Part shown: piece after piece, positions 2,249-13,114 of the stretch | Numbering within the stretch: position 1 is the first letter of the stretch | Layout of the letters: every line of letters starts with the position of its first letter | Source of the DNA: Thermoanaerobaculia bacterium | GTDB taxonomy: Bacteria > Acidobacteriota > Thermoanaerobaculia > UBA5066 | Direction of reading: 5' to 3' | NCBI GenBank assembly: GCA_963816185.1 | Contig: CAWFJJ010000009.1 | Span: 1-13,128 of the forward strand | Length of the DNA stretch: 13,128 nt | Made by a program: the position numbers and the translations under genes | The notes under the pieces: generated by a model | Database searches by the model: none | What the model was told of the DNA's origin: nothing | The model's input: only the letters and a program-made list of their open reading frames with translations

Positions 2249-5194
2249 ATGAGAGGAATCTGTCTCGCGTTGCTCCTCGGGATCGTTTGCTCCAGGGGGA
2301 TGGTCCTTGCGCAGGCGGGCGGCAGCCTCACCGGAACGATCGAAGGTATCGTCAAGGTCGGCGAGAATCCCGTCCAGGGCGCTCTCGTGACGATCTCTTC
2401 TCCCGCCCTTCAGGGCAAGCGCTCGACCGCGACGGGAGCGAGTGGCGACTACATCTTCCGCCAGCTCCCTCCCGGCTCCGCCAGGGGCGGCAACGCCTAC
2501 ACGATCACCTTCGCCCTCTCCGGTATGAAGACCGCCCAGAAGACGATCGACGTCTCGCTCGGCGGCAGCACACGGCAGGACGCGACGCTCGAAGTCGCGG
2601 CGGCGGCCACGGCCGTAACCGTCTCGAGCGCGAGCCTCGCCGCGGAAGAGGAAAACGCCGCCGTCCACGGCGCGACGTTCAAGGGCGAGGACGTCCAGAA
2701 CCTCCCCGTCGGGCGCACCCTGTCGCAGATCGCGGCGAACGCGCCCGGCCTCACGACGCGCACCCCCGACGCCAGACAGCTCTCGATCTCCGGCTCGTTC
2801 CCGTGGGACAACAGGTTCCTGCTCAACGGCGTCGACATCAGCGACAACATCGGTGGATGGGCGACGGACACCCTCGTCATCGAGGACGCGGTCCAGGAAA
2901 CGCAGGTCATGACGTCGAACATCTCCGCCGAGTACGGTAGCTTCTCGGGCGGCCTCGTCAACGCGATCACCCGAAGCGGCGGAAACCACTACTCTGGAAC
3001 GGCCCGCGTGGATTTCTCCAACCCGGACTGGCAGGCCTACACGCCGATCGAAGCCCGGCAGCAGACCACCCGTCCGTCGGCCCTTTCCGAGGTCTACACG
3101 GCGACGCTCGGCGGAAAGATCGTCGAGGACCGGCTGTGGTTCTTCCTCGCCGGCCGCTACACCGACATCACGCAGGGCACGACGCTGGCCCTCACGAACG
3201 AGCCGAACACGATGACGACCACGGAACCGCGCGTCGAGGCCAAGCTCACCGGCAACATCAACGCGAGCCACACGCTCCTGGTCGACTACACCACCTCGAA
3301 TCGAAAACAAGCGAACCGCCCGACCTTCGGGAACGACTCGCCGTGGCCCACTGCCGAGACCAGCGGCGATTGGACATCTGCTGAATTCCCCGCGAACGTT
3401 TTCGTCGCCCGGTACAACGGCGTCTTCACGCCGAACCTCATCGGCGACCTCGTCTACTCCCAGAAGAAGGCCGAGTTCAAGGGCTACGGCGGTACGGGCA
3501 GCGACATCGTCAGCGACTCGCCATTTGTTTCGAATGCGTCCGGCTCCCAGACGCTCGTCTCTTACGCCGCACCCGCCTTCGACGCGACGGACCCCGAGCA
3601 GCGCAACAACAAGGACATCGCGGGCAGCCTGTCGTACTACCTCTCGGCCGGGAAGCTGGGCACCCACGACCTCAAGGCCGGGATTGACATCTTCCACACG
3701 GTTCGCACCGGAGGCAACTCGCAGTCGCCGACCAACTACGTCTTCTATGCCGATTACAAAACCGACGCCAACGGCAACCCGGTCTACGGCCCGAGCCCGC
3801 TGGGGCCCCACCAGCTGATCCCGGTCTTCGTGCCGGGCCAAAGCCTCGCGGACATCTTCCTCGCCACGCGCGGCGCCCAGACGGATATCCGGACGGACGC
3901 GTTCTACGTCAACGATTCCTTCCGCCTGGGCCGCTTCTCGTTCAACATCGGATTCCGCTACGAGAAGGTGAACGGAACGGGCCCCGGGGGCGCGACGATC
4001 ACCGACACGCACGCCTTCGTCCCGCGCCTCGGAGCGATCTGGGACGTCAAGGGAAACGGCCAGTATCAGGTCTCGGGCTCGTACGCGCAGTACGCCGGCA
4101 AGTACAACGACCTGGCGGCGGGGCAGGGGACCGTGGTCGGAAACCCGAACGCCATCTATCAGGTCTACACGGGGCCGCCGGGTGAGGGCTACGGCTTCGC
4201 CCCGGCGTTCGATCCCAGGAACTACCAGACCTACTCCGTCCTCTTCCCGCTCTTGAACTCCTTCTATCCGCCGGGCGTCTCGGCGCCGATCACGACCGAA
4301 TACACGCTGAGCGCGGGAGGGAAGATCACCCCGAAGCTCAACGCGGCCGCCACGTTCATCTACCGCAACACGAAGAACTTCCTCGAGGACTTCATCAACA
4401 ACCCGACGGCCTCCGGCAAGACCGAGATCATCTACGAGGGCGTCGACTATGGAGCGTTCGACAACCGCTACTTCGCGAACTCCGACGTCCCCCGTCACAA
4501 GTACGAGGCGCTCCTGTTCCAGGCCGGCTACACGGGAATCCGGGACCTCTTCCTGCAGGCGAACTACACGTACATGCTGAAGTCCGAAGGCACGTACGAG
4601 GGTGACGGCGCGAGCTATCCCGCCGGCTACGCGTCCCGCTACGGGAACTATCCCGAGGTCCTGCCGCTGAACAGGGTCGATCCCTACGGAAACCTCTCGG
4701 GCTATCAGAAGCACAAGCTGCGCCTCCTCGGGACGTACGCCATCCGGTCGAAGATCGGCATCTTCACCCCCGGCCTGATCTACTCGTACGATTCCGGCCA
4801 GCCCTACAACATCACGTCGACCCTTCCGCTGACGGCGATCGAGATCGCCCGCGACCCGGGGTACGCGAGCCTTCCTGCGACCCAGTTGATCTACTACGGC
4901 GACCGCGGGAACAACTTCTTCCCGAGCCAGCAGCGGTGGGATCTCGCGTTCTCATGGGAAGCGCCGGTCTACAAGACGGTGGTTCCCTGGGTGCGGTTCG
5001 CGATCACGAACCTCTTCAACCCCGCCTACCTCGTTTCGTACGACACGTCGGTCACGGCCAACACGAAGGGCCCGCTCGACTCGAACGGCCTCCCGACCAC
5101 CTACACGAAGGCCAAGACGTTCGGTACCGCGACCTCCTCGGCCAACTACCAGCCGGCGCGGACCCTGACGTTCGCGGCCGGGATCCGGTTCTAG
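2249..5194 (+). CDS. TonB-dependent receptor, Oar-like, with N-terminal carboxypeptidase-regulatory-like domain
   Basis: ATG 2249 with SD-like AAGGGAG at 2236-2242 and signal peptide MRGICLALLLGIV...VLA|Q. Plug motifs NLPVGR, LLNGVDI, AEYGSFSGGLVNAITRSGGN. Barrel motifs LWFFLAG, FNIGFRYE, PRLGAIWD, ITNLFN. Ends in an outer-membrane C-terminal Phe (AGIRF). Confidence 0.93.
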   Translation: MRGICLALLLGIVCSRGMVLAQAGGSLTGTIEGIVKVGENPVQGALVTISSPALQGKRSTATGASGDYIFRQLPPGSARGGNAYTITFALSGMKTAQKTIDVSLGGSTRQDATLEVAAAATAVTVSSASLAAEEENAAVHGATFKGEDVQNLPVGRTLSQIAANAPGLTTRTPDARQLSISGSFPWDNRFLLNGVDISDNIGGWATDTLVIEDAVQETQVMTSNISAEYGSFSGGLVNAITRSGGNHYSGTARVDFSNPDWQAYTPIEARQQTTRPSALSEVYTATLGGKIVEDRLWFFLAGRYTDITQGTTLALTNEPNTMTTTEPRVEAKLTGNINASHTLLVDYTTSNRKQANRPTFGNDSPWPTAETSGDWTSAEFPANVFVARYNGVFTPNLIGDLVYSQKKAEFKGYGGTGSDIVSDSPFVSNASGSQTLVSYAAPAFDATDPEQRNNKDIAGSLSYYLSAGKLGTHDLKAGIDIFHTVRTGGNSQSPTNYVFYADYKTDANGNPVYGPSPLGPHQLIPVFVPGQSLADIFLATRGAQTDIRTDAFYVNDSFRLGRFSFNIGFRYEKVNGTGPGGATITDTHAFVPRLGAIWDVKGNGQYQVSGSYAQYAGKYNDLAAGQGTVVGNPNAIYQVYTGPPGEGYGFAPAFDPRNYQTYSVLFPLLNSFYPPGVSAPITTEYTLSAGGKITPKLNAAATFIYRNTKNFLEDFINNPTASGKTEIIYEGVDYGAFDNRYFANSDVPRHKYEALLFQAGYTGIRDLFLQANYTYMLKSEGTYEGDGASYPAGYASRYGNYPEVLPLNRVDPYGNLSGYQKHKLRLLGTYAIRSKIGIFTPGLIYSYDSGQPYNITSTLPLTAIEIARDPGYASLPATQLIYYGDRGNNFFPSQQRWDLAFSWEAPVYKTVVPWVRFAITNLFNPAYLVSYDTSVTANTKGPLDSNGLPTTYTKAKTFGTATSSANYQPARTLTFAAGIRF

Positions 5195-5202
5195 ATTTCT
5201 TC

Positions 5203-7383
5203 TTGGCGCGCGTGCGCGTTCTGTCGGCTGTTTCGCTTCTCCTCGTCTTCGTCGCGTGCACGAAGCACCGGGAGGATACCGAAGGGAAGGTCGCCGGCGC
5301 CTCCCGGTCCCGGGGCGCGTCCGTCGTCCTCATCTCGATCGACACGCTGAGGTCCGATCACCTCCCGCTCTACGGGGCGCGAGGTCTCGAGACCCCGACG
5401 CTCGACGCGATCGCCACGGACGGAATCGTCTTCGAGCGCGCGTACAGCCCCTGTCCGCTGACGCTGCCGGCGCACACGTCCATTTTCACCGGCCTCGACC
5501 CCGCGGGGCACGGCGTGAGGAACAACGTGGGGTTCACGCTGGACGCCTCGAAGCATCCGACGCTCGCGACGCTCCTCGCGGCGCGGGGCTACAGGACGGG
5601 TGGCGCCGTCTCGGCGTTCGTTCTCCGCGGCGCGACCGGCCTTGCGTCGTCGTTCGGGTTCTACGACGACCGCATCGACGCTCCCGCCGGCGCGTCCGCG
5701 GCGGGAGCGGTCCGGCGCGCCGGGCCCGAGACGATGCGCCGGGCGCTCGCGTGGCTCGACACCGTCGCGGCGGGCCCCTTCTTCCTCTTCGTCCACCTCT
5801 ACGAGCCGCACGCGCCCTACGACCCGCCCGAGCCCTTCCGGAGCCGCTCGGCGAGCGCGTACGACGGGGAGATCGCATACGCCGACTCGATCGTCGGCAC
5901 GCTCGTCGCCGACCTCAGACGCCGCGGCCTCTACGACGGAACGCTTCTCGTCGTCCTCTCGGACCACGGCGAGGGGCTGGGGGACCACGGGGAGCAGGAG
6001 CACGGGATCCTTCTCTACCGCGAGGCGCTCCAGGTTCCTCTCGTCGTCAAGCTCCCGGGCTCCCGCCGGCACGGCACACGCGTCGCAGAGCCGGTCGGCC
6101 TCGTCGACGTCCTGCCGACCATCGCCGGGGAGCTCGGCCTCGAGCCTCCGCCGGGCCTTCCGGGCGTCGACCTTCTCGCCGTTTCCTCCGCGCGACGTGC
6201 GGCCGAGCGCCGGATCTTCGCCGAGACGATGTACCCGCGAATCCACCTCGGCTGGAGCGAGCTCCGTTCTCTCGTGGGGGCGCGCGATCACTTCATCGAG
6301 GGCGTCCGCGCCGAGCTGTACGACGTCGTCTCGGATCCCGGTGAGACGCGCGATCTCTTCGCGTCCTCCAGCGAGACCGCACGCGACTTCAAGCGCGCCC
6401 TGAACAGGATCGAAGCGCCTTACACGGCTCCGGGGCAGGTGAAGTCCGAGGACCTCAAGAAGCTCGTCTCTCTCGGCTATCTCGCCGGTGCGTCCGACGC
6501 GACCGGCCCGCTTCCCGACCCTCGCGCGAGCCTTCCGATCCTCGAGGACATGAAGAAGGCCTTCACGCTCGGCGCGGAAGGGCACGATGCGGAGGCGCTC
6601 GCGGGTCTCAAGTCGGTCCTCGCGCGCCAGCCACGCCTCTTCGACGCCCAGTACGCCGAGGCCGAAGTCCTCGCCCGGATGGGACGCCTCGACGAAGCCG
6701 CGGCGGCATACGCGAAGGCGCTTCGCCTGTCGCCCGCGCTCGCCAGTTCCATCGCCCTCGCACTGGCCCGGGTCACGCTCGAGCTCTCGCGTCCGGACGA
6801 GGCGGAGGCGAATGCCCGAATCGCGCTCCGCGAGAGTCCCGACGAGGCGCACGAGATCCTCGCCCGCGTGGCTCTCGAGCGGAACGATCTCGAGAGCGCC
6901 GAGCGTGAAGCGCGACTCGTCCACGGCGGAGCTTCGCCCGAGGCGCAAGGCGCCGTCGTCCTCGCGGAAGTGGCTCTCCGGCGCGACCGGCCCGCCGACG
7001 CGCTCGCGCTCCTCGACGCGGCGCGAAAGCCGGTGGCGGCCGCAGGCCTTTCTCTCCCGCGGAACCTGTCGTTCCTGACGGGCGATGCCCTGGCCCGCAC
7101 CTCGCGGCTGCCCGAGGCGGCCGCCGCCTTCCGGGAGGAGATCCGCGCCTATCCCACGAACGCGCAGGCCTACGCCCGGCTCGCGATCGTCCTCGCCGTC
7201 GAGCACCGGACACGCGGCGACGTGGCTGCGCTCCTCGAATCGATGTACCGCGCGAATCCATCGCCCGCGACGGCGCAACTCGCCGAACAGACGCTGGACT
7301 CCATCGGAGACCGCTCCGGGGCAGCCCGATGGGCCGCGCGCGGGCGTTCCCCCTCCGCGCGACCTTCCCGGACCTCCCGCTGA
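5203..7383 (+). CDS. Sulfatase-like (alkaline phosphatase superfamily) lipoprotein with C-terminal TPR repeats
   Basis: Lipoprotein-like signal SLLLVFVA|C. Motifs ISIDTLRSD, PLTLPAHTSIFTG, HLYEPHAPY, YDGEI, SDHGE, EHG, ELYD...DPGE. Ala/Leu-rich TPR-like helices follow (GRLDEAAAAYAKALRLSP). Start TTG 5203 or GTG 5212; the ORF extension to 4936 overlaps the receptor gene. Confidence 0.88.
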   Translation: MARVRVLSAVSLLLVFVACTKHREDTEGKVAGASRSRGASVVLISIDTLRSDHLPLYGARGLETPTLDAIATDGIVFERAYSPCPLTLPAHTSIFTGLDPAGHGVRNNVGFTLDASKHPTLATLLAARGYRTGGAVSAFVLRGATGLASSFGFYDDRIDAPAGASAAGAVRRAGPETMRRALAWLDTVAAGPFFLFVHLYEPHAPYDPPEPFRSRSASAYDGEIAYADSIVGTLVADLRRRGLYDGTLLVVLSDHGEGLGDHGEQEHGILLYREALQVPLVVKLPGSRRHGTRVAEPVGLVDVLPTIAGELGLEPPPGLPGVDLLAVSSARRAAERRIFAETMYPRIHLGWSELRSLVGARDHFIEGVRAELYDVVSDPGETRDLFASSSETARDFKRALNRIEAPYTAPGQVKSEDLKKLVSLGYLAGASDATGPLPDPRASLPILEDMKKAFTLGAEGHDAEALAGLKSVLARQPRLFDAQYAEAEVLARMGRLDEAAAAYAKALRLSPALASSIALALARVTLELSRPDEAEANARIALRESPDEAHEILARVALERNDLESAEREARLVHGGASPEAQGAVVLAEVALRRDRPADALALLDAARKPVAAAGLSLPRNLSFLTGDALARTSRLPEAAAAFREEIRAYPTNAQAYARLAIVLAVEHRTRGDVAALLESMYRANPSPATAQLAEQTLDSIGDRSGAARWAARGRSPSARPSRTSR

Positions 7384-7409
7384 GCGCGGCCCGCCGTGTC
7401 CCCCGCGGC

Positions 7410-7415
7410 TAGAAT
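7410..7415 (+). promoter_or_regulatory. Probable -10 element (TAGAAT) for the kinase gene
   Basis: 5/6 match to TATAAT, standing out in a very GC-rich 46-bp intergenic gap. It lies 14 nt upstream of GTG 7430, and no convincing SD is present. Confidence 0.5.
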
Positions 7416-7429
7416 CCCGTCAGAGCTTC

Positions 7430-10285
7430 GTGACGATCAGCGCGGGTACCCGTCTCGGCCCGTACGAAGTGCTCGCTCCGATCGGCGCGGGCGGGATGGG
7501 CGAGGTTTACCGGGCGCGCGACACGCGACTCGGCCGCGACGTCGCGATCAAGGTCCTCCCCGAGTCCGTCTCGGCCGATCCGAAGGCCCTCGCCCGGTTC
7601 GAGAGCGAGGCCCGTGCCGTCGCGGCCCTTTCTCATCCGAACATCCTCGCCCTCCACGACGTCGGCGAGACGGACGGTGTCCGCTACGCGGTGACGGAGC
7701 TTCTGGAAGGCGAGACGCTGCGGGGTCTCGTCGGCCGGGGCCTCATCCCCGTGCGGCGCGCCCTGGAGATCGTGCACGAAGTGGCCGAAGCGCTCGCGGC
7801 CGCCCACGGCAAGGGGATCGTCCACCGCGACGTGAAGCCCGAGAACGTCTTCGTGACGAAGGACGGCCGCGTCAAGCTCCTCGACTTCGGCCTGGCCCGA
7901 TCCGGACCTCTCCCCGCCGGACGCGAAGAGACGCATTCGCCGACGGTCGAGAAGCTGACCTCGGAAGGAGCGGCGGTCGGGACGGTGGCCTACATGTCGC
8001 CCGAGCAGGCGCGCGGGGAGACCGTCGAATATCGGAGCGACCAGTTCTCGCTCGGCATCGTCCTCTACGAGATGCTCGCGGGGACACGGCCGTTCAAGGG
8101 GGCGTCCGTCGCCGAGACGCTGACGGCGATCATCCGCGAGGAGCCCGAGCCGCTCGCGGCCGCGGCTCCGCAGGTGCCCGCCCCGGTCCGGTGGCTCGTG
8201 GAGCGGCTGCTGGCGAAGGACGCTCGTGGACGGTACGAATCGACGGCGGACCTCGCCCGAGACCTGAAGACCTTGAGCCTCCACCTGTCGGAGGCCGGGA
8301 TGTCGTCCGGCTCCGCAAGGGCCGCGGCAGCGAGCACGGCTGGAAGGAGAAGTTGGCGCACTCTCCCGGGTCCCGCAGTCGCCGGTCTCGTCGCCGCTGC
8401 CGTTCTCGTCACCGCCCTCGTGACGGACTCTCTCTTGAGGGGGAAAGCCCGCGGGCCAGCTCCGGTGAATCGAGTGGAGGTCCGGCTCCCGGAGGGGCAC
8501 TACCTCTCCCGGTTCCGGCAGCAATTCGCGCTCTCCCCGGACGGCAGGCTCCTCGTCTTCTCCGCGATCGCCTGGAAGGATGGAGACCCGGAGGAGAGCC
8601 CCCGGCAGCTCTTCCTCCGGCCCCTCGACAGCTTCGAGGCACGGCCGATTCCCGGCACTGAAGCGGTCGGAACGGCCGGGGGCAGGAATCCCGTCTTCTC
8701 CCCTGACGGACGGCACATCGCCTTCAGCTTCAAGTCGGACGGCAAGGACTTCCTGAAGAGGGTCCCGGTCGCTGGAGGGGCCGCCACGACGATCTGCCAG
8801 TGCGACGCTGCCTGGGGGAAGGAGTGGTCGAGCGGGTCGATCCTCTTCGCGTCGGTCAGAGGACCGCTGCAGAGGGTGCCCGACGCCGGCGGCACCCCCG
8901 AGGCGGTCACGGCGCTCGACGCCGCGGAGGGAGAGGTCAGCCACCGGCTCCCTCACCTCCTCCCAGATGGACGTACCGTGGTCTACACGGCCCTCCGCTG
9001 GGAGACGGAAGGGATGACGTGGGCGAAGGTCCGGATCTACGGCCAGCGTCTCGGCGAGAAGGAGAGAAGCCTCCTCGCGGAAGGGGGTTCGGACGGCCGC
9101 TGGGTCCCCCCGGGGAACCTCATCTTCGCCCGGGAGGGGAGGCTCTTCGCCGCCCCGTTCGACGCCTCATCCTTGCGGGTCGGCGGCCAGGCGGTCCCGG
9201 TCCTCGAGGGGGTGAGTCATTGGATCTGGGCGCCAGGCGAAGATGGGGAGAGCGGGGCCGCCAGCCTGGACGTGGCGGCCGACACCTTCGCGTGGGTCCC
9301 CGGGTCCGTGATACCCGAGCTAACGGGGTCCCTCGTCTGGATCGACAGGGCGGGCAAGAAGACGCCGGTGGACCTTCCGAAAGGACCGTTTCCAAACGGC
9401 CGGATCTCGCCGGACGGCAAGCGGCTCCTCGTCTTCTACTTCTATCCGGGGAGGCAGGCCGAAATCGTCGATCTCGCGAGCGGGGCCCGCCGCAACGTGA
9501 CCTTCGAGATGAATCCCCTCTCGGCCATCTGGGGGCCCGGACCGGACCGGATCACGTTCGTCTCCAACCACGAAGGACCGCCCAGGATCTACAGCCGGAA
9601 GGTCGACGCCGGCCCGGAGGAGGTCGAGACGCTCTGGAGGGGGACGGGCCGCGGCGGAATCGCAGTCGGTTCCTGGTCGCGGGACGGGAAGACCCTCGCG
9701 TTCGTCGTCTCCGATCCGAAGACCGGTTATGACATCTGGCTCCTCGAGCAGGGGAAGGCGCCTCGCCCGTTCGTCTCGAGCCAATTCGGCGAGATGCACC
9801 CGGACATCTCGCCGGACGGCCGCTGGCTCCTTTACACCTCGGACGAGCCGGGGCGGTACGAGGTCTTCGTGAGGCCACTCTCCGGCGGCCCTCCCCGGCA
9901 AGTCTCCGCCGGTGGAGATCGGGTGCTTGGAGGTCGGCAGCCTCTCTGGTCGCGGGACGGCTCCGCGATCACCTACTGGGGGAACGGACCGACTCCCGGC
10001 CTCTGGGTCCTCTTCCGCGTCGGCGTGACGGTGTCGGGAGACGGGCTCTCGCTCGGCCAGCCGGCGAGGCTCATCGAGGCTCCTTCCAAGGGCGTCCGTA
10101 GCTACCCTAACCACGGGTGGGACATGGCGCCGGACGGACGCATTCTCAGGGGCGAGTGGATGACCGAGGCGGACAGCCGCGCCTGGGAAGAGAAGACCCT
10201 CTCCGACCGGATTCGCATCGACCTCGGCGGCCTCCCCGCGCTTCTCTCCGGGGCGGGGAAGCAGCAGCCGGCGGGCGAGAAATAG
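7430..10285 (+). CDS. Hanks-type Ser/Thr protein kinase with a transmembrane helix and PD40/TolB-like beta-propeller C-terminal region
   Basis: Typical N-terminus (V)TISAGTRLGPYEV, then GAGGMGEVY, VAIKVL, HRDVKPEN, DFGLA, YMSPEQ, SDQFSLG. Hydrophobic AVAGLVAAAVLVTALV is followed by repeated SPDGR/SPDGK/SRDG blades. Confidence 0.95.
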   Translation: MTISAGTRLGPYEVLAPIGAGGMGEVYRARDTRLGRDVAIKVLPESVSADPKALARFESEARAVAALSHPNILALHDVGETDGVRYAVTELLEGETLRGLVGRGLIPVRRALEIVHEVAEALAAAHGKGIVHRDVKPENVFVTKDGRVKLLDFGLARSGPLPAGREETHSPTVEKLTSEGAAVGTVAYMSPEQARGETVEYRSDQFSLGIVLYEMLAGTRPFKGASVAETLTAIIREEPEPLAAAAPQVPAPVRWLVERLLAKDARGRYESTADLARDLKTLSLHLSEAGMSSGSARAAAASTAGRRSWRTLPGPAVAGLVAAAVLVTALVTDSLLRGKARGPAPVNRVEVRLPEGHYLSRFRQQFALSPDGRLLVFSAIAWKDGDPEESPRQLFLRPLDSFEARPIPGTEAVGTAGGRNPVFSPDGRHIAFSFKSDGKDFLKRVPVAGGAATTICQCDAAWGKEWSSGSILFASVRGPLQRVPDAGGTPEAVTALDAAEGEVSHRLPHLLPDGRTVVYTALRWETEGMTWAKVRIYGQRLGEKERSLLAEGGSDGRWVPPGNLIFAREGRLFAAPFDASSLRVGGQAVPVLEGVSHWIWAPGEDGESGAASLDVAADTFAWVPGSVIPELTGSLVWIDRAGKKTPVDLPKGPFPNGRISPDGKRLLVFYFYPGRQAEIVDLASGARRNVTFEMNPLSAIWGPGPDRITFVSNHEGPPRIYSRKVDAGPEEVETLWRGTGRGGIAVGSWSRDGKTLAFVVSDPKTGYDIWLLEQGKAPRPFVSSQFGEMHPDISPDGRWLLYTSDEPGRYEVFVRPLSGGPPRQVSAGGDRVLGGRQPLWSRDGSAITYWGNGPTPGLWVLFRVGVTVSGDGLSLGQPARLIEAPSKGVRSYPNHGWDMAPDGRILRGEWMTEADSRAWEEKTLSDRIRIDLGGLPALLSGAGKQQPAGEK

Positions 10286-10288
10286 AGG

Positions 10289-10384
10289 ATGGCGCTCGAA
10301 GCTGGCACCGGGATCGGCCGCGAAAGATGCCGTTCAGCTGGAGGGGCGCTCGACGATCGTGCGCTGGAGCGAGACTTGAGCTGA
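10289..10384 (+). pseudogene. Possible 5' remnant of a second tandem Ser/Thr kinase gene
   Basis: ATG 3 nt after the kinase stop encodes MALEAGTGIGR..., resembling the M-x-L-x-x-GTRLGPY start of this kinase family (compare TISAGTRLGP). Similarity is lost after about 10 codons, and the frame stops at 31 aa next to the att repeat. Confidence 0.35.
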
Positions 10385-10391
10385 AAGGCAA

Positions 10392-10436
10392 TGGTGGAGC
10401 TGAACGGGATCGAACCGTCGACCTCTTGAATGCCAT
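10392..10436 (-). repeat. Displaced 3' fragment of tRNA-Ala (45-bp att direct repeat)
   Basis: Identical to 12074..12118, i.e. tRNA positions 32-76, from the first base of the anticodon loop through CCA. It has no 5' half, so it is not a functional tRNA. Confidence 0.96.
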
Positions 10437-10512
10437 AAAGGCCGCCTCCATCATTTTCCCAGGAGATTCTGAGACTTAGGCGGCGAGGGAGCGCCCTGCC
10501 TGGGGCATTCGT

Positions 10513-10532
10513 GCATGCCGGATCGCTGTACG
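10513..10532 (+). repeat. 20-bp motif, copy 1 (candidate integrase arm-type site)
   Basis: GCATGCCGGATCGCTGTACG, 19/20 identical to 12030..12049 in direct orientation. Confidence 0.75.
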
Positions 10533-10867
10533 CGTCACGCATCGGCGCGGATCGTGATTTCCGCGGGGGCCTGTCAAGTGGAAAAGTGGCCTGCATGGGA
10601 CACTGCGAGGACAGGTCCACTTTGGTCACCAATGCAGACGGTTTTGGTCAGTAGCTGAGCGTGCCGTATGCCTCGGCTGGGATTGCAGCTCCCTCGCTGA
10701 CGGCCCGCGACGTCACGCCGCTTGCTGTGGCTCTCGCGCGACCACCTGCGCGCGCGAGTACACGTGCTCGGTCGTCGCGCTCTCGCGCAAGCGGCGCGCC
10801 GCGCTACCGGCTCTCGACTCCGGCGCTGCTGATCGGCTTTCCTCTCGGCGTACCCGGCGCACCATCC

Positions 10868-11164
10868 GCCCCCGCGCGCGGCGAGCTCCGGCGTGCGGGG
10901 CGTTGGTGCCGGGCGCTCTGCAGCGCGCGCGCCGGGCGGGGCCCCACGTTCCCCTGCCCGTCACGCGCGCGCATCCCGCATTCGCGCGTTCGCTGGCCGG
11001 TAATGGCCTATTACCGTCCCCGGGTCTTTCATTTCCCGGCCGCGCGTGCGCGGCCGGGGGCACCCCGCACGCCTCCGGGGCGCTTCGGCGCCCTTCACAT
11101 AACGCGAGCGCTATGTGCTCAGGGTGCGCGCGGTAGCGCGCACCAACTCGCCGCGCGCGGGGGC
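10868..11164. other. Structured non-coding module A
   Basis: Perfect 18-bp closing stem 10868-10885/11147-11164 and 11-bp stem 10890-10900/11063-11073. Hairpins at 10923-10972, 10998-11016, 11035-11058, 11078-11093, 11096-11117 and 11123-11144. Homologous to the reverse complement of module B. Confidence 0.8.
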
Positions 11165-11619
11165 TTGGCGCCGGAGCGGCGGCAAGCGCCGTGGCTTCGA
11201 GAGACGCCGGAAGAATTTTCGCGCGCGCCTTCGGCGCGGTCGCTGAAGGCGCGTCACGCTCCGTGCTTCGCTTCCGCGCGCGGCATCTGCGGTTCTCGTT
11301 CCTGCGCGTCCTCGATCCCGCGCGCGGGCACGGCCCGCGCCGCGCCGGGCCCCGCGCTGGCGGGAGCATGCCCGCGAGGTGGTCGAGCACGGCGCGCCAG
11401 CGACCGCGCGCAGACGACCGAGCGGAAGCGACGCATGCGCACTGCCAGCGCTTTACCGCCGCGGCCGAAGGCCGCCGCCGCTAGCCACGTGGCCTTGCGC
11501 GGCACGCACGCGTGCGGCGCGTGGACCGAGCACGCTTGCGCGCGCAGGCGCACGCGCCCTTCATTCGCGCGCCGCGCAAGGCCCTTCGCCGCTCGCGCCC
11601 GGGCCGGGCGCGCACCGCA

Positions 11620-11875
11620 CGCCCCCGGCGGGTTTACATAGCGCCCCGTTATGTAAACGGCCGAGCGCAGCGAGGCCCGGAGGCGAGAGGGGTGCCGCCG
11701 CGGAGGCGAAGCGCGGAGCGGGACATGAAAGTGCCGGGGCCGATAAACGCGTTTATCGGCAAGCGGGATCTCGCAGCGCGCGTGCCCGATGGGAGGGCCG
11801 GGGAGGGACCCGCGGGCACGCGCGCTGCCCCGCGGCCGGCGCCACCAGCCCCTCTCGCCGGAGCCGCCGGGGGCG
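11620..11875. other. Structured non-coding module B (inverted, diverged copy of A)
   Basis: Perfect 12-bp closing stem 11620-11631/11864-11875 and 11-bp stem 11682-11692/11849-11859. Hairpins at 11632-11658, 11659-11677, 11739-11760 (perfect 22-bp palindrome) and 11773-11828 (perfect 16-bp stem). Confidence 0.8.
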
Positions 11876-12029
11876 CTGTCTCCCCGTCGTGCTCTCCCCC
11901 GTCGGGTGTCCGCATCGCCGCTACAGGTCGCGCGAGAAGCGCGTCCTCGCCTCGATCGCCGCGTCGTTCGCGAGGCGCGAAACACGTCTGCCGGCGTTCG
12001 ATTTCGGGCGCTTTATCGGCGTCCTCCCC

Positions 12030-12049
12030 GCATGCCGTATCGCTGTACG
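12030..12049 (+). repeat. 20-bp motif, copy 2 (candidate integrase arm-type site)
   Basis: GCATGCCGTATCGCTGTACG, 24 bp from the tRNA CCA end and 19/20 identical to 10513..10532. Confidence 0.75.
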
Positions 12050-12073
12050 TCGCGCCGAGGAAGGCTTCTAAAG

Positions 12074-12149
<76 letters not shown>

Positions 12150-12171
12150 ACGCCGTGCGGAGAGAGGGCGA

Positions 12172-12241: not shown

Positions 12242-13114
12242 ATGCGCTGGACCGAAGGCGAACAGAGTCCGGACATCGAGGACCGGCGTGGCGAGGGCGG
12301 AGGATTCAGCTTTGGCGGCGGAGGGTTCCGCCTCGGATGCGGCGGCATCATTCTTCTCGCGGTCCTCAGCCTCGTCTTCAGGAAGAACTTCTTCGCGCTT
12401 CTGGACAGCAACTCCGGCGGACCGCCCGCCGCCGACGTCACGCGCTCCGGCCCGCCCGTCTCGCAGTCGGCCGAAGACCAGCAGCGCGTGAAGTTCGTCT
12501 CGTTCGTCGTCGAGGATGTCCAACGCACCTGGGAAAAGGAATTCCCGAAGCTCGGCGGAACCTATCAGCGCGCGAAGCTCGTCCTCTTCCGTGACGCGAC
12601 GCGCTCGGGCTGCGGCTTCGCCGAGTCGGAGATGGGCCCGTTCTACTGTCCGACCGACGAGAAGGTGTATCTCGACCTCGGCTTCTTCGACGAGCTGCGC
12701 TCGCGCTTTGGCGCCCCGGGAGAGTTCGCCGAGGCCTACGTCATCGCGCACGAGTTCGGCCATCACGTGCAGAGGTTGCTCGGACTCGACGAGAAGGTTC
12801 GCCGCGCCCAGGCCGAGCGCCCGTCGATGAAGAACGAGCTTTCCGTGCGGACGGAGCTCCAGGCCGACTGCCTCGCCGGCGTCTGGGGGCACGCGACGGC
12901 CGAGAGGAACATCCTCGAGAAGGGCGACGTCGAGTCCGGCCTCGCGGCCGTATCGGCCGTGGGCGACGACCGGCTTCAAAAGGCAGCGACCGGGCGCGTG
13001 AGTCCCGAGTCGTGGACGCACGGCTCGTCGAGGGAGCGCACGGAGTGGTTCACGCGGGGGTTGCAGACAGGTCAGGTCGGTGCCTGTGACACGTTCGCGC
13101 GGGCGGCGCGCTGA
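12242..13114 (+). CDS. ypfJ: YpfJ-like neutral zinc metallopeptidase
   Basis: N-terminal MRW....S..IEDRRG, Gly-rich linker and TM helix, then SGCGFA....GPFYCP.D.KVYLDL.FF, zinc motif YVIAHEFGHHVQ, ELQADCLAG and THGSS.ER..WF. SD-like GAGGGG upstream. Confidence 0.92.
   Translation: MRWTEGEQSPDIEDRRGEGGGFSFGGGGFRLGCGGIILLAVLSLVFRKNFFALLDSNSGGPPAADVTRSGPPVSQSAEDQQRVKFVSFVVEDVQRTWEKEFPKLGGTYQRAKLVLFRDATRSGCGFAESEMGPFYCPTDEKVYLDLGFFDELRSRFGAPGEFAEAYVIAHEFGHHVQRLLGLDEKVRRAQAERPSMKNELSVRTELQADCLAGVWGHATAERNILEKGDVESGLAAVSAVGDDRLQKAATGRVSPESWTHGSSRERTEWFTRGLQTGQVGACDTFARAAR

Follow-up and report, generated by a model that had tools for sequence, protein, structure and literature searches.

The 13,128-nt stretch of DNA considered here (the window) is a whole contig (C9) of a draft genome of 5.09 Mb and 68% G+C, that of an uncultured Acidobacteriota metagenome-assembled genome (MAG; Thermoanaerobaculia/Holophagales), and contains two inverted copies, termed modules A and B, of a large structured non-coding sequence. 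The modules are parts of a conserved whole of ~1.2 kb (10668-11895), and comparison with related genomes shows this unit to be a lineage-specific non-coding hallmark of tRNA-integrating, site-specific islands in one uncultured Acidobacteriota family. The unit is a structured non-coding element of mobile DNA, and the fold of its modules is kept by selection via compensating mutations. The covarying inverted-pair unit, which is not in Rfam, appears to be new. In the following, relative genomes are labeled G, loci from relatives L, and contigs C; several loci are present in duplicate.

An initial annotation had described two colinear copies at 10868-11164 and, in reverse complement, at 11620-11875. 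Their colinearity was confirmed by blastn (71.4% over 283 nt, E = 4.4e-19; reciprocally 72.0% over 254 nt, E = 4.6e-18), and alignment of A with reverse-complemented B in MAFFT gave a mean column identity of 77%; the true extent of the feature exceeds those first coordinates (Table 1). A and B are the sole copies in their own 5.09-Mb genome, with no third. Protein coding was considered as an explanation for the long open reading frames (ORFs) of this region (e.g., 326 aa at 10661-11641, + strand) and was ruled out: every ORF of at least 60 aa within 10286-12073 is flat in G+C content across the three codon positions (GC1/2/3, 0.68-0.80), the genuine genes of the window having a GC3 of 0.83-0.88 and a GC2 of 0.47-0.57, and homologues are separated by 1-nt indels.

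The minimum free energy (MFE) of A is -207.1 kcal/mol vs. -176.8 ± 4.6 kcal/mol in shuffled sequences (z = -6.55; none of 100 shuffles as low), and B folds modestly better than its shuffles (z = -2.71; 2 of 200 as low). The compensated differences between the two copies that had been read from the window were all recovered, namely, those in the central stem (GGCGTGCGGGG/CCCCGCACGCC in A, GGCGAGAGGGG/CCCCTCTCGCC in B), in a hairpin where CGGTAA/TTACCG in A becomes CGATAA/TTATCG in B, and in the closing stem, which changes from 18 perfect pairs in A to 12 in B. The further claim that the fold is under selection is borne out by the homologues collected with R1, a covariance model of the 201-position module core (70 matches, 56 distinct): both sides have changed in 28 of the 41 modelled pairs among the 56 distinct sequences, in an alignment that was fitted to the model and hence favours structure. 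In this alignment, 97.3% of cells pair vs. 84.7% after shuffling (no shuffle out of 500 attains any of five measures), and pairing drops to 35-49% when the partners are slid by 1-3 columns; one position of the central helix is occupied by GC in 21 sequences, AU in 14, UA in 11, and CG in 7, with 2 unpaired. Plain MAFFT alignments, which were not fitted to the model, contain the same covariation. Across 35 cores, the central helix GGCG-NNN-GGGG / CCCC-NNN-CGCC is unbroken in all, one of its positions is UA in 10, AU in 10, GC in 10, and CG in 5, and neighbouring positions are divided between AU 20/CG 15, GC 29/AU 6, and GC 31/UA 4. The closing stem covaries by CG/GC swaps, and in the alignments the window lineage has a 1-bp insertion in P1 that is matched by an insertion on the partner strand, giving one extra base pair.

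Table 1. Features of the unit and its surroundings in the window (positions in nt; P, paired helix; HMM, hidden Markov model; PD40 and TPR, protein repeats).
Feature	Position	Strand	Remarks
Module A	10858-11173	+	HMM and covariance-model extent; nhmmer 232 bits; R1 159.5 bits on core 10884-11080
A closing stem P1	10868-10885 with 11147-11164		18 perfect pairs
A long-range central helix P2	10890-10900 with 11063-11073		GGCGTGCGGGG with CCCCGCACGCC
A hairpin P3	~10920-10972
A hairpin P5	10998-11004 with 11010-11016
A conserved unpaired motif	11026-11037		CTTTCATTTCCC
A hairpin P6	11038-11055
A P7	~11077-11094
A P8	11096-11117
A P9	11123-11144
Module B	11573-11886	-	Inverted paralogue of A; nhmmer 204 bits; R1 137.2 bits on 11675-11865
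B P1			12 bp
B P2			GGCGAGAGGGG / CCCCTCTCGCC
B P3	11773-11788 with 11813-11828		Perfect 16-bp stem
Outer block, leader outside module A	10668-10857	+	94-96.5% over ~200 nt in L006, L009, L014, L032
Left spacer	11174-11350	+	84-92% in close relatives, 78-80% in divergent ones
Conserved tail domain of left spacer	11205-11350		146 nt; RNAalifold 35 pairs, 11 changed on both sides
Variable centre	11347-11405	.	Mosaic breakpoint; ~120 columns of close relatives absent in window
Right spacer	11352-11572	-	75-85% to L013, L039, L041; no match in L003-L009
Linker, module B to tRNA	11887-12073	-
tRNA-Ala(GGC)	12074-12149	-	ARAGORN; Rfam tRNA 64.2 bits
Proximal att-like repeat	12074-12118	-	3' 45 nt of tRNA-Ala(GGC)
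Distal att-like direct repeat	10392-10436	-	45 nt, 100% identical to 12074-12118
Junction segment	10437-10667	.	~80% conserved in L003, L004, L005, L008, L010
RNA-library contigs	11058-11248 joined to 11406-11642; 11079-11324; 11136-11324; 11567-11712; 10866-10970
Ser/Thr kinase with PD40 repeats	ends 10285		Pfam
Zinc metallopeptidase	12242-13114		Pfam
Sulfatase-TPR, TonB-receptor-like, zinc-type dehydrogenase	further upstream		Pfam

The module had not been recognized as belonging to a known family, and this assessment stands: across the window only the tRNA reached its gathering score in Rfam 15, and a search of 10286-12160 at E up to 10 gave best non-tRNA scores of 9.9-20.2 bits against gathering scores of 40-112. 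Such an element was also not found in literature searches limited to Thermoanaerobaculia non-coding RNA and Acidobacteria mobile elements (supplements not covered). A motif pattern derived from the alignment matched 18 stretches in species-representative genomes, all of them MAGs titled Thermoanaerobaculia, Holophagales, Acidobacteriota, or uncultured Acidobacteriota, in addition to 12 metagenome stretches, and gave no match in viral contigs; similarly, blastn of 10668-11895 found nothing similar in phage or plasmid collections. R1 matches occur in 41 of the 151 genomes of the order, including 37 of 62 in the family of the window, 2 of 81 in a second family, and 1 of 7 in a third, with the listed matches in the latter two families spanning only part of the model, and reach a maximum of 16 in one genome. 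Two unpublished genomes, G037 and G042, may be among those lacking a match and support no claim made here.

The inverted arrangement, which had been taken to put one copy on each strand, is general. With nhmmer, 57 module matches were found across the loci examined, and all 22 listed adjacent pairs are convergent (+ then -), ~15 of them being distinct because several loci occur twice; covariance-model matches across whole genomes likewise come in +/- couples with 1.2-1.4 kb between them. The spacer length varies from 342 to 988 nt, and copies within one genome are 70-80% identical. In one locus (L034 4029-5122, which equals L082 13030-14123), an IS3-type insertion sequence element (HTH_Tnp_1 and rve domains) lies in the spacer and extends it to 1,778 nt. 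The outer block is the best-conserved part of the unit, and its portion at 10704-10835 is retained at 77-86% in the divergent elements L034, L039, L041, and L050. The spacer centre is rich in indels, similarity to many relatives stops at 11346-11352, and the right half of the window unit resembles another lineage than its left half; in addition, 11264-11435 forms an imperfect palindrome (72% over 178 nt). A 55-nt left-spacer fragment ending at the 11346 breakpoint was observed in L015 (2179-2232; G003:C4), ~530 nt past the syntenic tRNA-Ala, and looks, from its sequence, like the remnant of a decayed element. At 13 loci, duplicates included, module B is separated from tRNA-Ala by a conserved ORF of 87-99 aa with a GC3 of ~0.8 (the ORF87 family; e.g., L032 9083-9346 and L033 7140-7403), which is absent from the window and has no match in Pfam, NCBIfam, or PHROGs.

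The position of the unit in the window is that of an insert at a tRNA gene. G007 has an unoccupied site, where the homologue of window positions 10327-10391 comes immediately after the syntenic tRNA, beside a zinc-metallopeptidase gene and in a flank that is 90.6% identical to that of the window; 10437-12073 is thus a 1,637-nt insertion at the tRNA 3' end. As is usual for tRNA-targeting islands, the insert is bounded by the intact tRNA and a 45-nt direct repeat of its 3' end, and the same partial-tRNA copies adjoin the elements of relatives. The insert is gene-less, as no coding-type ORF in it passed the filter on G+C content by codon position. Since full relatives carry integrase and replication genes, the window copy is a gene-less derivative and not an autonomous island, and this att-flanked copy suggests a non-coding hitch-hiker on tyrosine-integrase islands. 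The position of the junction segment is taken by a helix-turn-helix (HTH) gene or by cargo in L006, L009, L032, and L038. Related tRNA-like matches were also observed elsewhere in the same genome (C25:236415-236461, C8:371164-371214, and C1:445851-445883).

In other genomes, the pair lies at one end of islands of 10-18 kb. The genes of a full island comprise those for an XRE/RstR-like repressor, a primase(-helicase) of the DnaG type, and a small tyrosine integrase resembling Xer, besides cargo that varies and is mostly of the defence type. For example, the island of the near-complete genome G011 begins with tRNA-Ala(CGC), an 87-aa ORF, the pair (B nearest the tRNA), and an XRE-type HTH gene reading towards A; 18 kb of cargo follow, including a deaminase, a two-component pair, a MacB-type ABC exporter, a SIR2-like protein, and a DUF433 protein; and the island ends with a 352-aa tyrosine integrase, a partial tRNA, a second set of ORF87, pair, and HTH gene, and a third partial tRNA. 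A 565-aa protein of this island had no match in Pfam or PHROGs, and its atlas scores (≤0.82) were uninformative. When the ORFs around all pairs were clustered, one recurrent neighbour emerged, an XRE HTH protein of 129-155 aa at 19 loci, which in L040 matches the NCBIfam RstR-repressor model over its full length (81.1 bits; cut-off, 80); three others that were tested scored 58-63 bits, below this cut-off. Divergent pairs are found among genes for an Mrr-type endonuclease, a C5 methylase, an Eco57I-type enzyme, MazF, and IS110/IS21/IS3 transposases.

In the islands of G019 and G032 (L082 and L084), the pair is followed by cargo and the HTH gene and then, divergently, by a DnaG-type primase, a gene of unknown type, and the integrase, with the next pair ~10-12 kb further on. 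Their primases contain a Zn-ribbon and a Toprim domain (626-1,067 aa), and their integrases (337-340 aa, within an overall range of 337-352 aa) have a SAM-like N-domain. Island primases as a group (L082 5814-7694, L084 6175-9378, and others) measure 626-1,251 aa, are 55-57% identical across genera, and always have a small tyrosine integrase next to them; a helicase part is probably present in the long forms. A module was found 1.3-5.2 kb from the primase at all 16 island-type primase loci (five genomes) and at the single one in G011. One IMG/VR contig encodes a 49%-identical primase and no module, which is little informative because the contig is a fragment of 17% estimated completeness. Several genomes have pairs every 9-14 kb (G019:C2 2401-2423 kb, G107:C9 118-141 kb, G107:C7 1-24 kb, G086:C10 185-214 kb, and G032:C37 140-154 kb), a spacing that suggests related islands arrayed in tandem; genes for restriction, toxins, and other types of defence make up most of the cargo.

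These islands match in outline the tycheposons and similar islands resembling phage-inducible chromosomal islands (PICIs), which, in the parts of the account considered here, combine a tyrosine recombinase, a primase/helicase, variable cargo, and tRNA integration with partial tRNAs, and in which older elements are displaced inwards by each new integration and degenerate remnants are frequent (10.1101/2020.12.28.424599). The likeness is one of description; tycheposons have Prochlorococcus hosts, and those parts of their description lack the term "non-coding" and mention no paired structured unit of this kind (10.1101/2020.12.28.424599).

With regard to function, the reading that is tentatively preferred is that the unit acts in cis as the region from which the island replicates and offers each strand a single-strand initiation structure of its own. 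Unwinding of the central spacer would cause each strand to expose one module, which would fold as single-stranded DNA (ssDNA) and signal strand-specific initiation to a primase, namely, that of the island or, for gene-less copies, the DnaG of the host; with A on the + and B on the - strand, priming would then proceed outwards both ways. The priming logic would be that of the two oppositely oriented single-strand initiation (ssi) signals in the oriV of RSF1010, in a far larger and more ornate form. In RSF1010, as far as the sections drawn upon here describe it, the primase RepB' initiates on ssiA and ssiB, 40-nt inverted repeats located one on each complementary strand and exposed by a helicase, and these signals, once unwound, start leading-strand synthesis on each strand (PMC8567376). 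The likeness within those sections thus consists of two homologous, opposed hairpin signals, one per strand, beside a primase-encoding replicon, and the RSF1010 signals differ in being 40 nt long, in having one hairpin, and in serving RepB', an archaeo-eukaryotic-type primase (PMC8567376). The modules here, known from sequence alone, have ~300 nt, approximately nine helices, a structured spacer of 342-988 nt, a DnaG-type primase, and no iterons that were found. By analogy, the selected fold, the non-coding character, the one-copy-per-strand layout, the island membership, the primase linkage, the unoccupied site in G007, the Watson-Crick pairing, and the RSF1010 precedent together would support a replication region.

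The pairing evidence comes from the four well-supported helices, in which 14 G-U and 25 A-C cells were counted among ~1,900. Such almost pure Watson-Crick pairing without strand asymmetry would be expected from a constraint at the DNA level or on both strands and not from a one-strand RNA. Of the 100 G-U cells in total, 80 fall in two weakly supported pairs, and two invariant U-G pairs in weakly supported helices favour RNA of the sense strand. The antisense strand has the lower MFE in 32 of 40 modules (by a mean of 7.6 kcal/mol) and folds better in all three module alignments, and reverse-complemented alignments also give G-U-containing structures. In the tail domain, 59 G-U vs. 4 A-C cells were counted, and the consensus energy is -36.3 kcal/mol for the sense vs. 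-34.5 kcal/mol for the antisense strand. The strand tests by wobble pairs, MFE, and consensus energy conflict.

Other single-stranded signals offer a wider frame for a replication role. Plasmid single-strand origins (sso), Frpo of F, the intergenic region of Ff, the G4 origin, and ig-1 of CTX phage are non-coding regions of 150-500 nt that are active only as a folded single DNA strand, and each is present once and in one orientation. The element is set beside sso elements by description and not by sequence. The order of att site, structured region, repressor reading towards it, and divergent replication gene resembles that of RS2 of CTX phage; a look through the annotated islands revealed neither an HUH replication initiator nor any gene of filamentous phages.

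Several observations weigh against a replication region. The primase linkage may reflect common descent within one island family only. The window genome (G000), G006, G008, G027, and G004 possess the pair with intact folds and no island primase, whereas an orphan origin would be expected to decay; these five genomes have only a 27-30%-identical DnaG-like match, which is presumably the housekeeping primase, and the window genome has no close relative of the G011 integrase (best match, 33% identity over part). Neither iterons nor an AT-rich unwinding element was found in eight elements, whose recurrent directed 9-mers are only (CG)n-type stem sequence; the most AT-rich stretch is the 13-nt GGAAGAATTTTCG at 11209-11221. 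In addition, ssiA/ssiB are exceeded 7-8 times in length by the modules, which also branch far more, and the ssDNA state of the element would follow only by analogy with such signals. Finally, the orientation of flanking genes also suits a transcribed element, and contigs from RNA libraries fit an RNA at least as well, as described below.

The possibility that the unit instead encodes a convergent pair of ornate structured RNAs, in which each module would be transcribed towards the centre together with the outer leader and the tail, is entertained with some reserve as a nearly equal alternative. The transcript could be a 3' extension of the repressor, ORF87, or tRNA transcript or could have its own promoter, and its role could lie in island immunity, copy control, or host interaction; in a variant of this explanation, it would be a pre-primer RNA or R-loop former at the island origin. 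In its favour, four RNA-library runs of three studies (X15 and X17 from one study, X16, and X18) yielded short contigs that fall in the outer block, in portions of the two modules, and in the spacer, mostly with a word depth of 2-20. One contig of 430 nt runs from the 3' third of A via a shortened spacer to the 3' part of B, and another enters 10668-10732 from outside. The contigs come without strand, ends, level, or a silent control stretch, so that DNA carry-over is possible; no contig covers 10478-10669, 10990-11053, or most of 11886-12013, none bridges the tRNA and module B, and nothing is concluded from these gaps. The word shares of these runs (0.05-0.11) have no bearing on habitat. In two of the runs, from one study, 11248 is joined to 11406 with 157 nt skipped, which indicates a shorter centre in a relative.

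The genes around the pair are also consistent with transcription: at 10 pairs, 18 of the 20 flanking ORFs or tRNAs read into the element in the sense direction of the modules (ORFs being taken from the GC3 filter and related by descent, and one further pair with an ambiguous left ORF being left out), and at all loci linked to a tRNA, module B follows tRNA-Ala on its downstream side in the same orientation. The G-U excess and slightly better sense energy of the tail domain, as well as the persistence of intact gene-less copies in genomes without island proteins, speak for an RNA, too. Large bacterial RNAs such as GOLLD, ROOL, and HEARO/omega RNA have many covarying helices, reside in prophages or mobile regions, frequently close to tRNA genes, and have functions that are unknown or were recently found. 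The element resembles them in its size, number of helices, and invariant unpaired motifs; they are single genes with a clear strand, whereas the element is an obligate inverted pair with no Rfam match. A scan of the element found no sigma-70-like promoter site and a single terminator-like site (11279-11291, +), with 0.9 expected by chance. The greater stability of the antisense strand and the near absence of G-U pairs from the best-supported helices count against an RNA, and strictly convergent paralogous RNA genes would have no obvious rationale.

The location of the pair between convergent genes at most loci (the same 18 of 20 flanks), together with its dense GC-rich hairpins on both strands, would also suit a bidirectional transcription stop or insulator, or a protector of mRNA 3' ends between convergent operons, and such a role is considered improbable. 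The unit would then be a giant analogue of repetitive extragenic palindromic (REP) sequences, of the REPIN elements, and of bacterial interspersed mosaic elements (BIMEs), which it resembles in its mosaic of two hairpin-forming repeat types in alternating orientation between convergent genes. A REP unit measures 20-40 nt, and its near-identical copies number in the hundreds and pair among themselves; the modules have 300 nt, are few and divergent, and fold on themselves. Simple terminators or REP hairpins need no long-range helix, multi-branch core, or unpaired motifs invariant across genera. Moreover, only 1-8 pairs occur per genome, always in mobile or defence islands and not spread through operons, and within-genome copies are 70-80% identical and not near-identical.

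Little credence is likewise given to a non-autonomous mobile element, which by analogy might be a fold-back unit like a miniature inverted-repeat transposable element (MITE) or a folded-DNA recombination site for the Xer-like integrase, as in attC and the attP of CTX phage. It would account for the gene-less window unit with its 45-nt direct repeats, for the same minimal unit in G011 between the second and third partial tRNA, and for the independent assortment of left and right halves at the recurrent breakpoint 11346-11352; the integrases are also small, and the SAM-like N-domains in L082/L084 are as in Xer and integron integrases. Yet the tRNA repeats and the cargo both lie outside the pair, so that the modules are not the termini of the mobile DNA. 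Similarly, A and B are only 72% alike, with orthologous modules elsewhere far closer (outer block 94-96.5%), which is unlike co-evolving terminal repeats, and the breakpoint is a variable, indel-rich centre with no conserved core sequence. A MITE or fold-back transposon in the strict sense was rejected, as there is one pair in the genome of the window and no burst of near-identical copies (70-80% identity), and the att repeats lie outside the pair. The small remaining weight belongs to an explanation that was not considered.

A broader proposal, rather unlikely as it stands, is that the unit represents a bipartite device of a new class, in which each strand contributes one ornate 300-nt fold and the two, with the structured spacer between them, form a self-contained maintenance core of the island, either as an origin with large folded single strands as priming sites for a DnaG-type primase or as convergent large RNAs for the control of replication or immunity; as a gene-less 1.6-kb satellite at tRNA-Ala, this core could maintain itself and spread with proteins supplied in trans. 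Whatever its function, the unit is a large, strongly covarying non-coding structure without a described family, which is multi-copy in a family of abundant uncultured soil and wetland Acidobacteriota and tied to islands whose cargo includes genes for restriction, toxins, and other defence functions. As an origin, it would show how primase-encoding islands of the tycheposon/PICI type begin to replicate and would widen the scale of single-strand initiation signals; as an RNA, it would add to the known classes one that is paired, ornate, and linked to the control of mobile elements. On either reading, the covariance model marks islands and gene-less remnants in metagenomes.

Among the window genes outside the insert, the sulfatase-TPR ORF (4936-7383) and the kinase ORF (7085-10285) overlap by ~300 nt in different frames, and this overlap is probably a mere upstream ORF extension in G+C-rich DNA.

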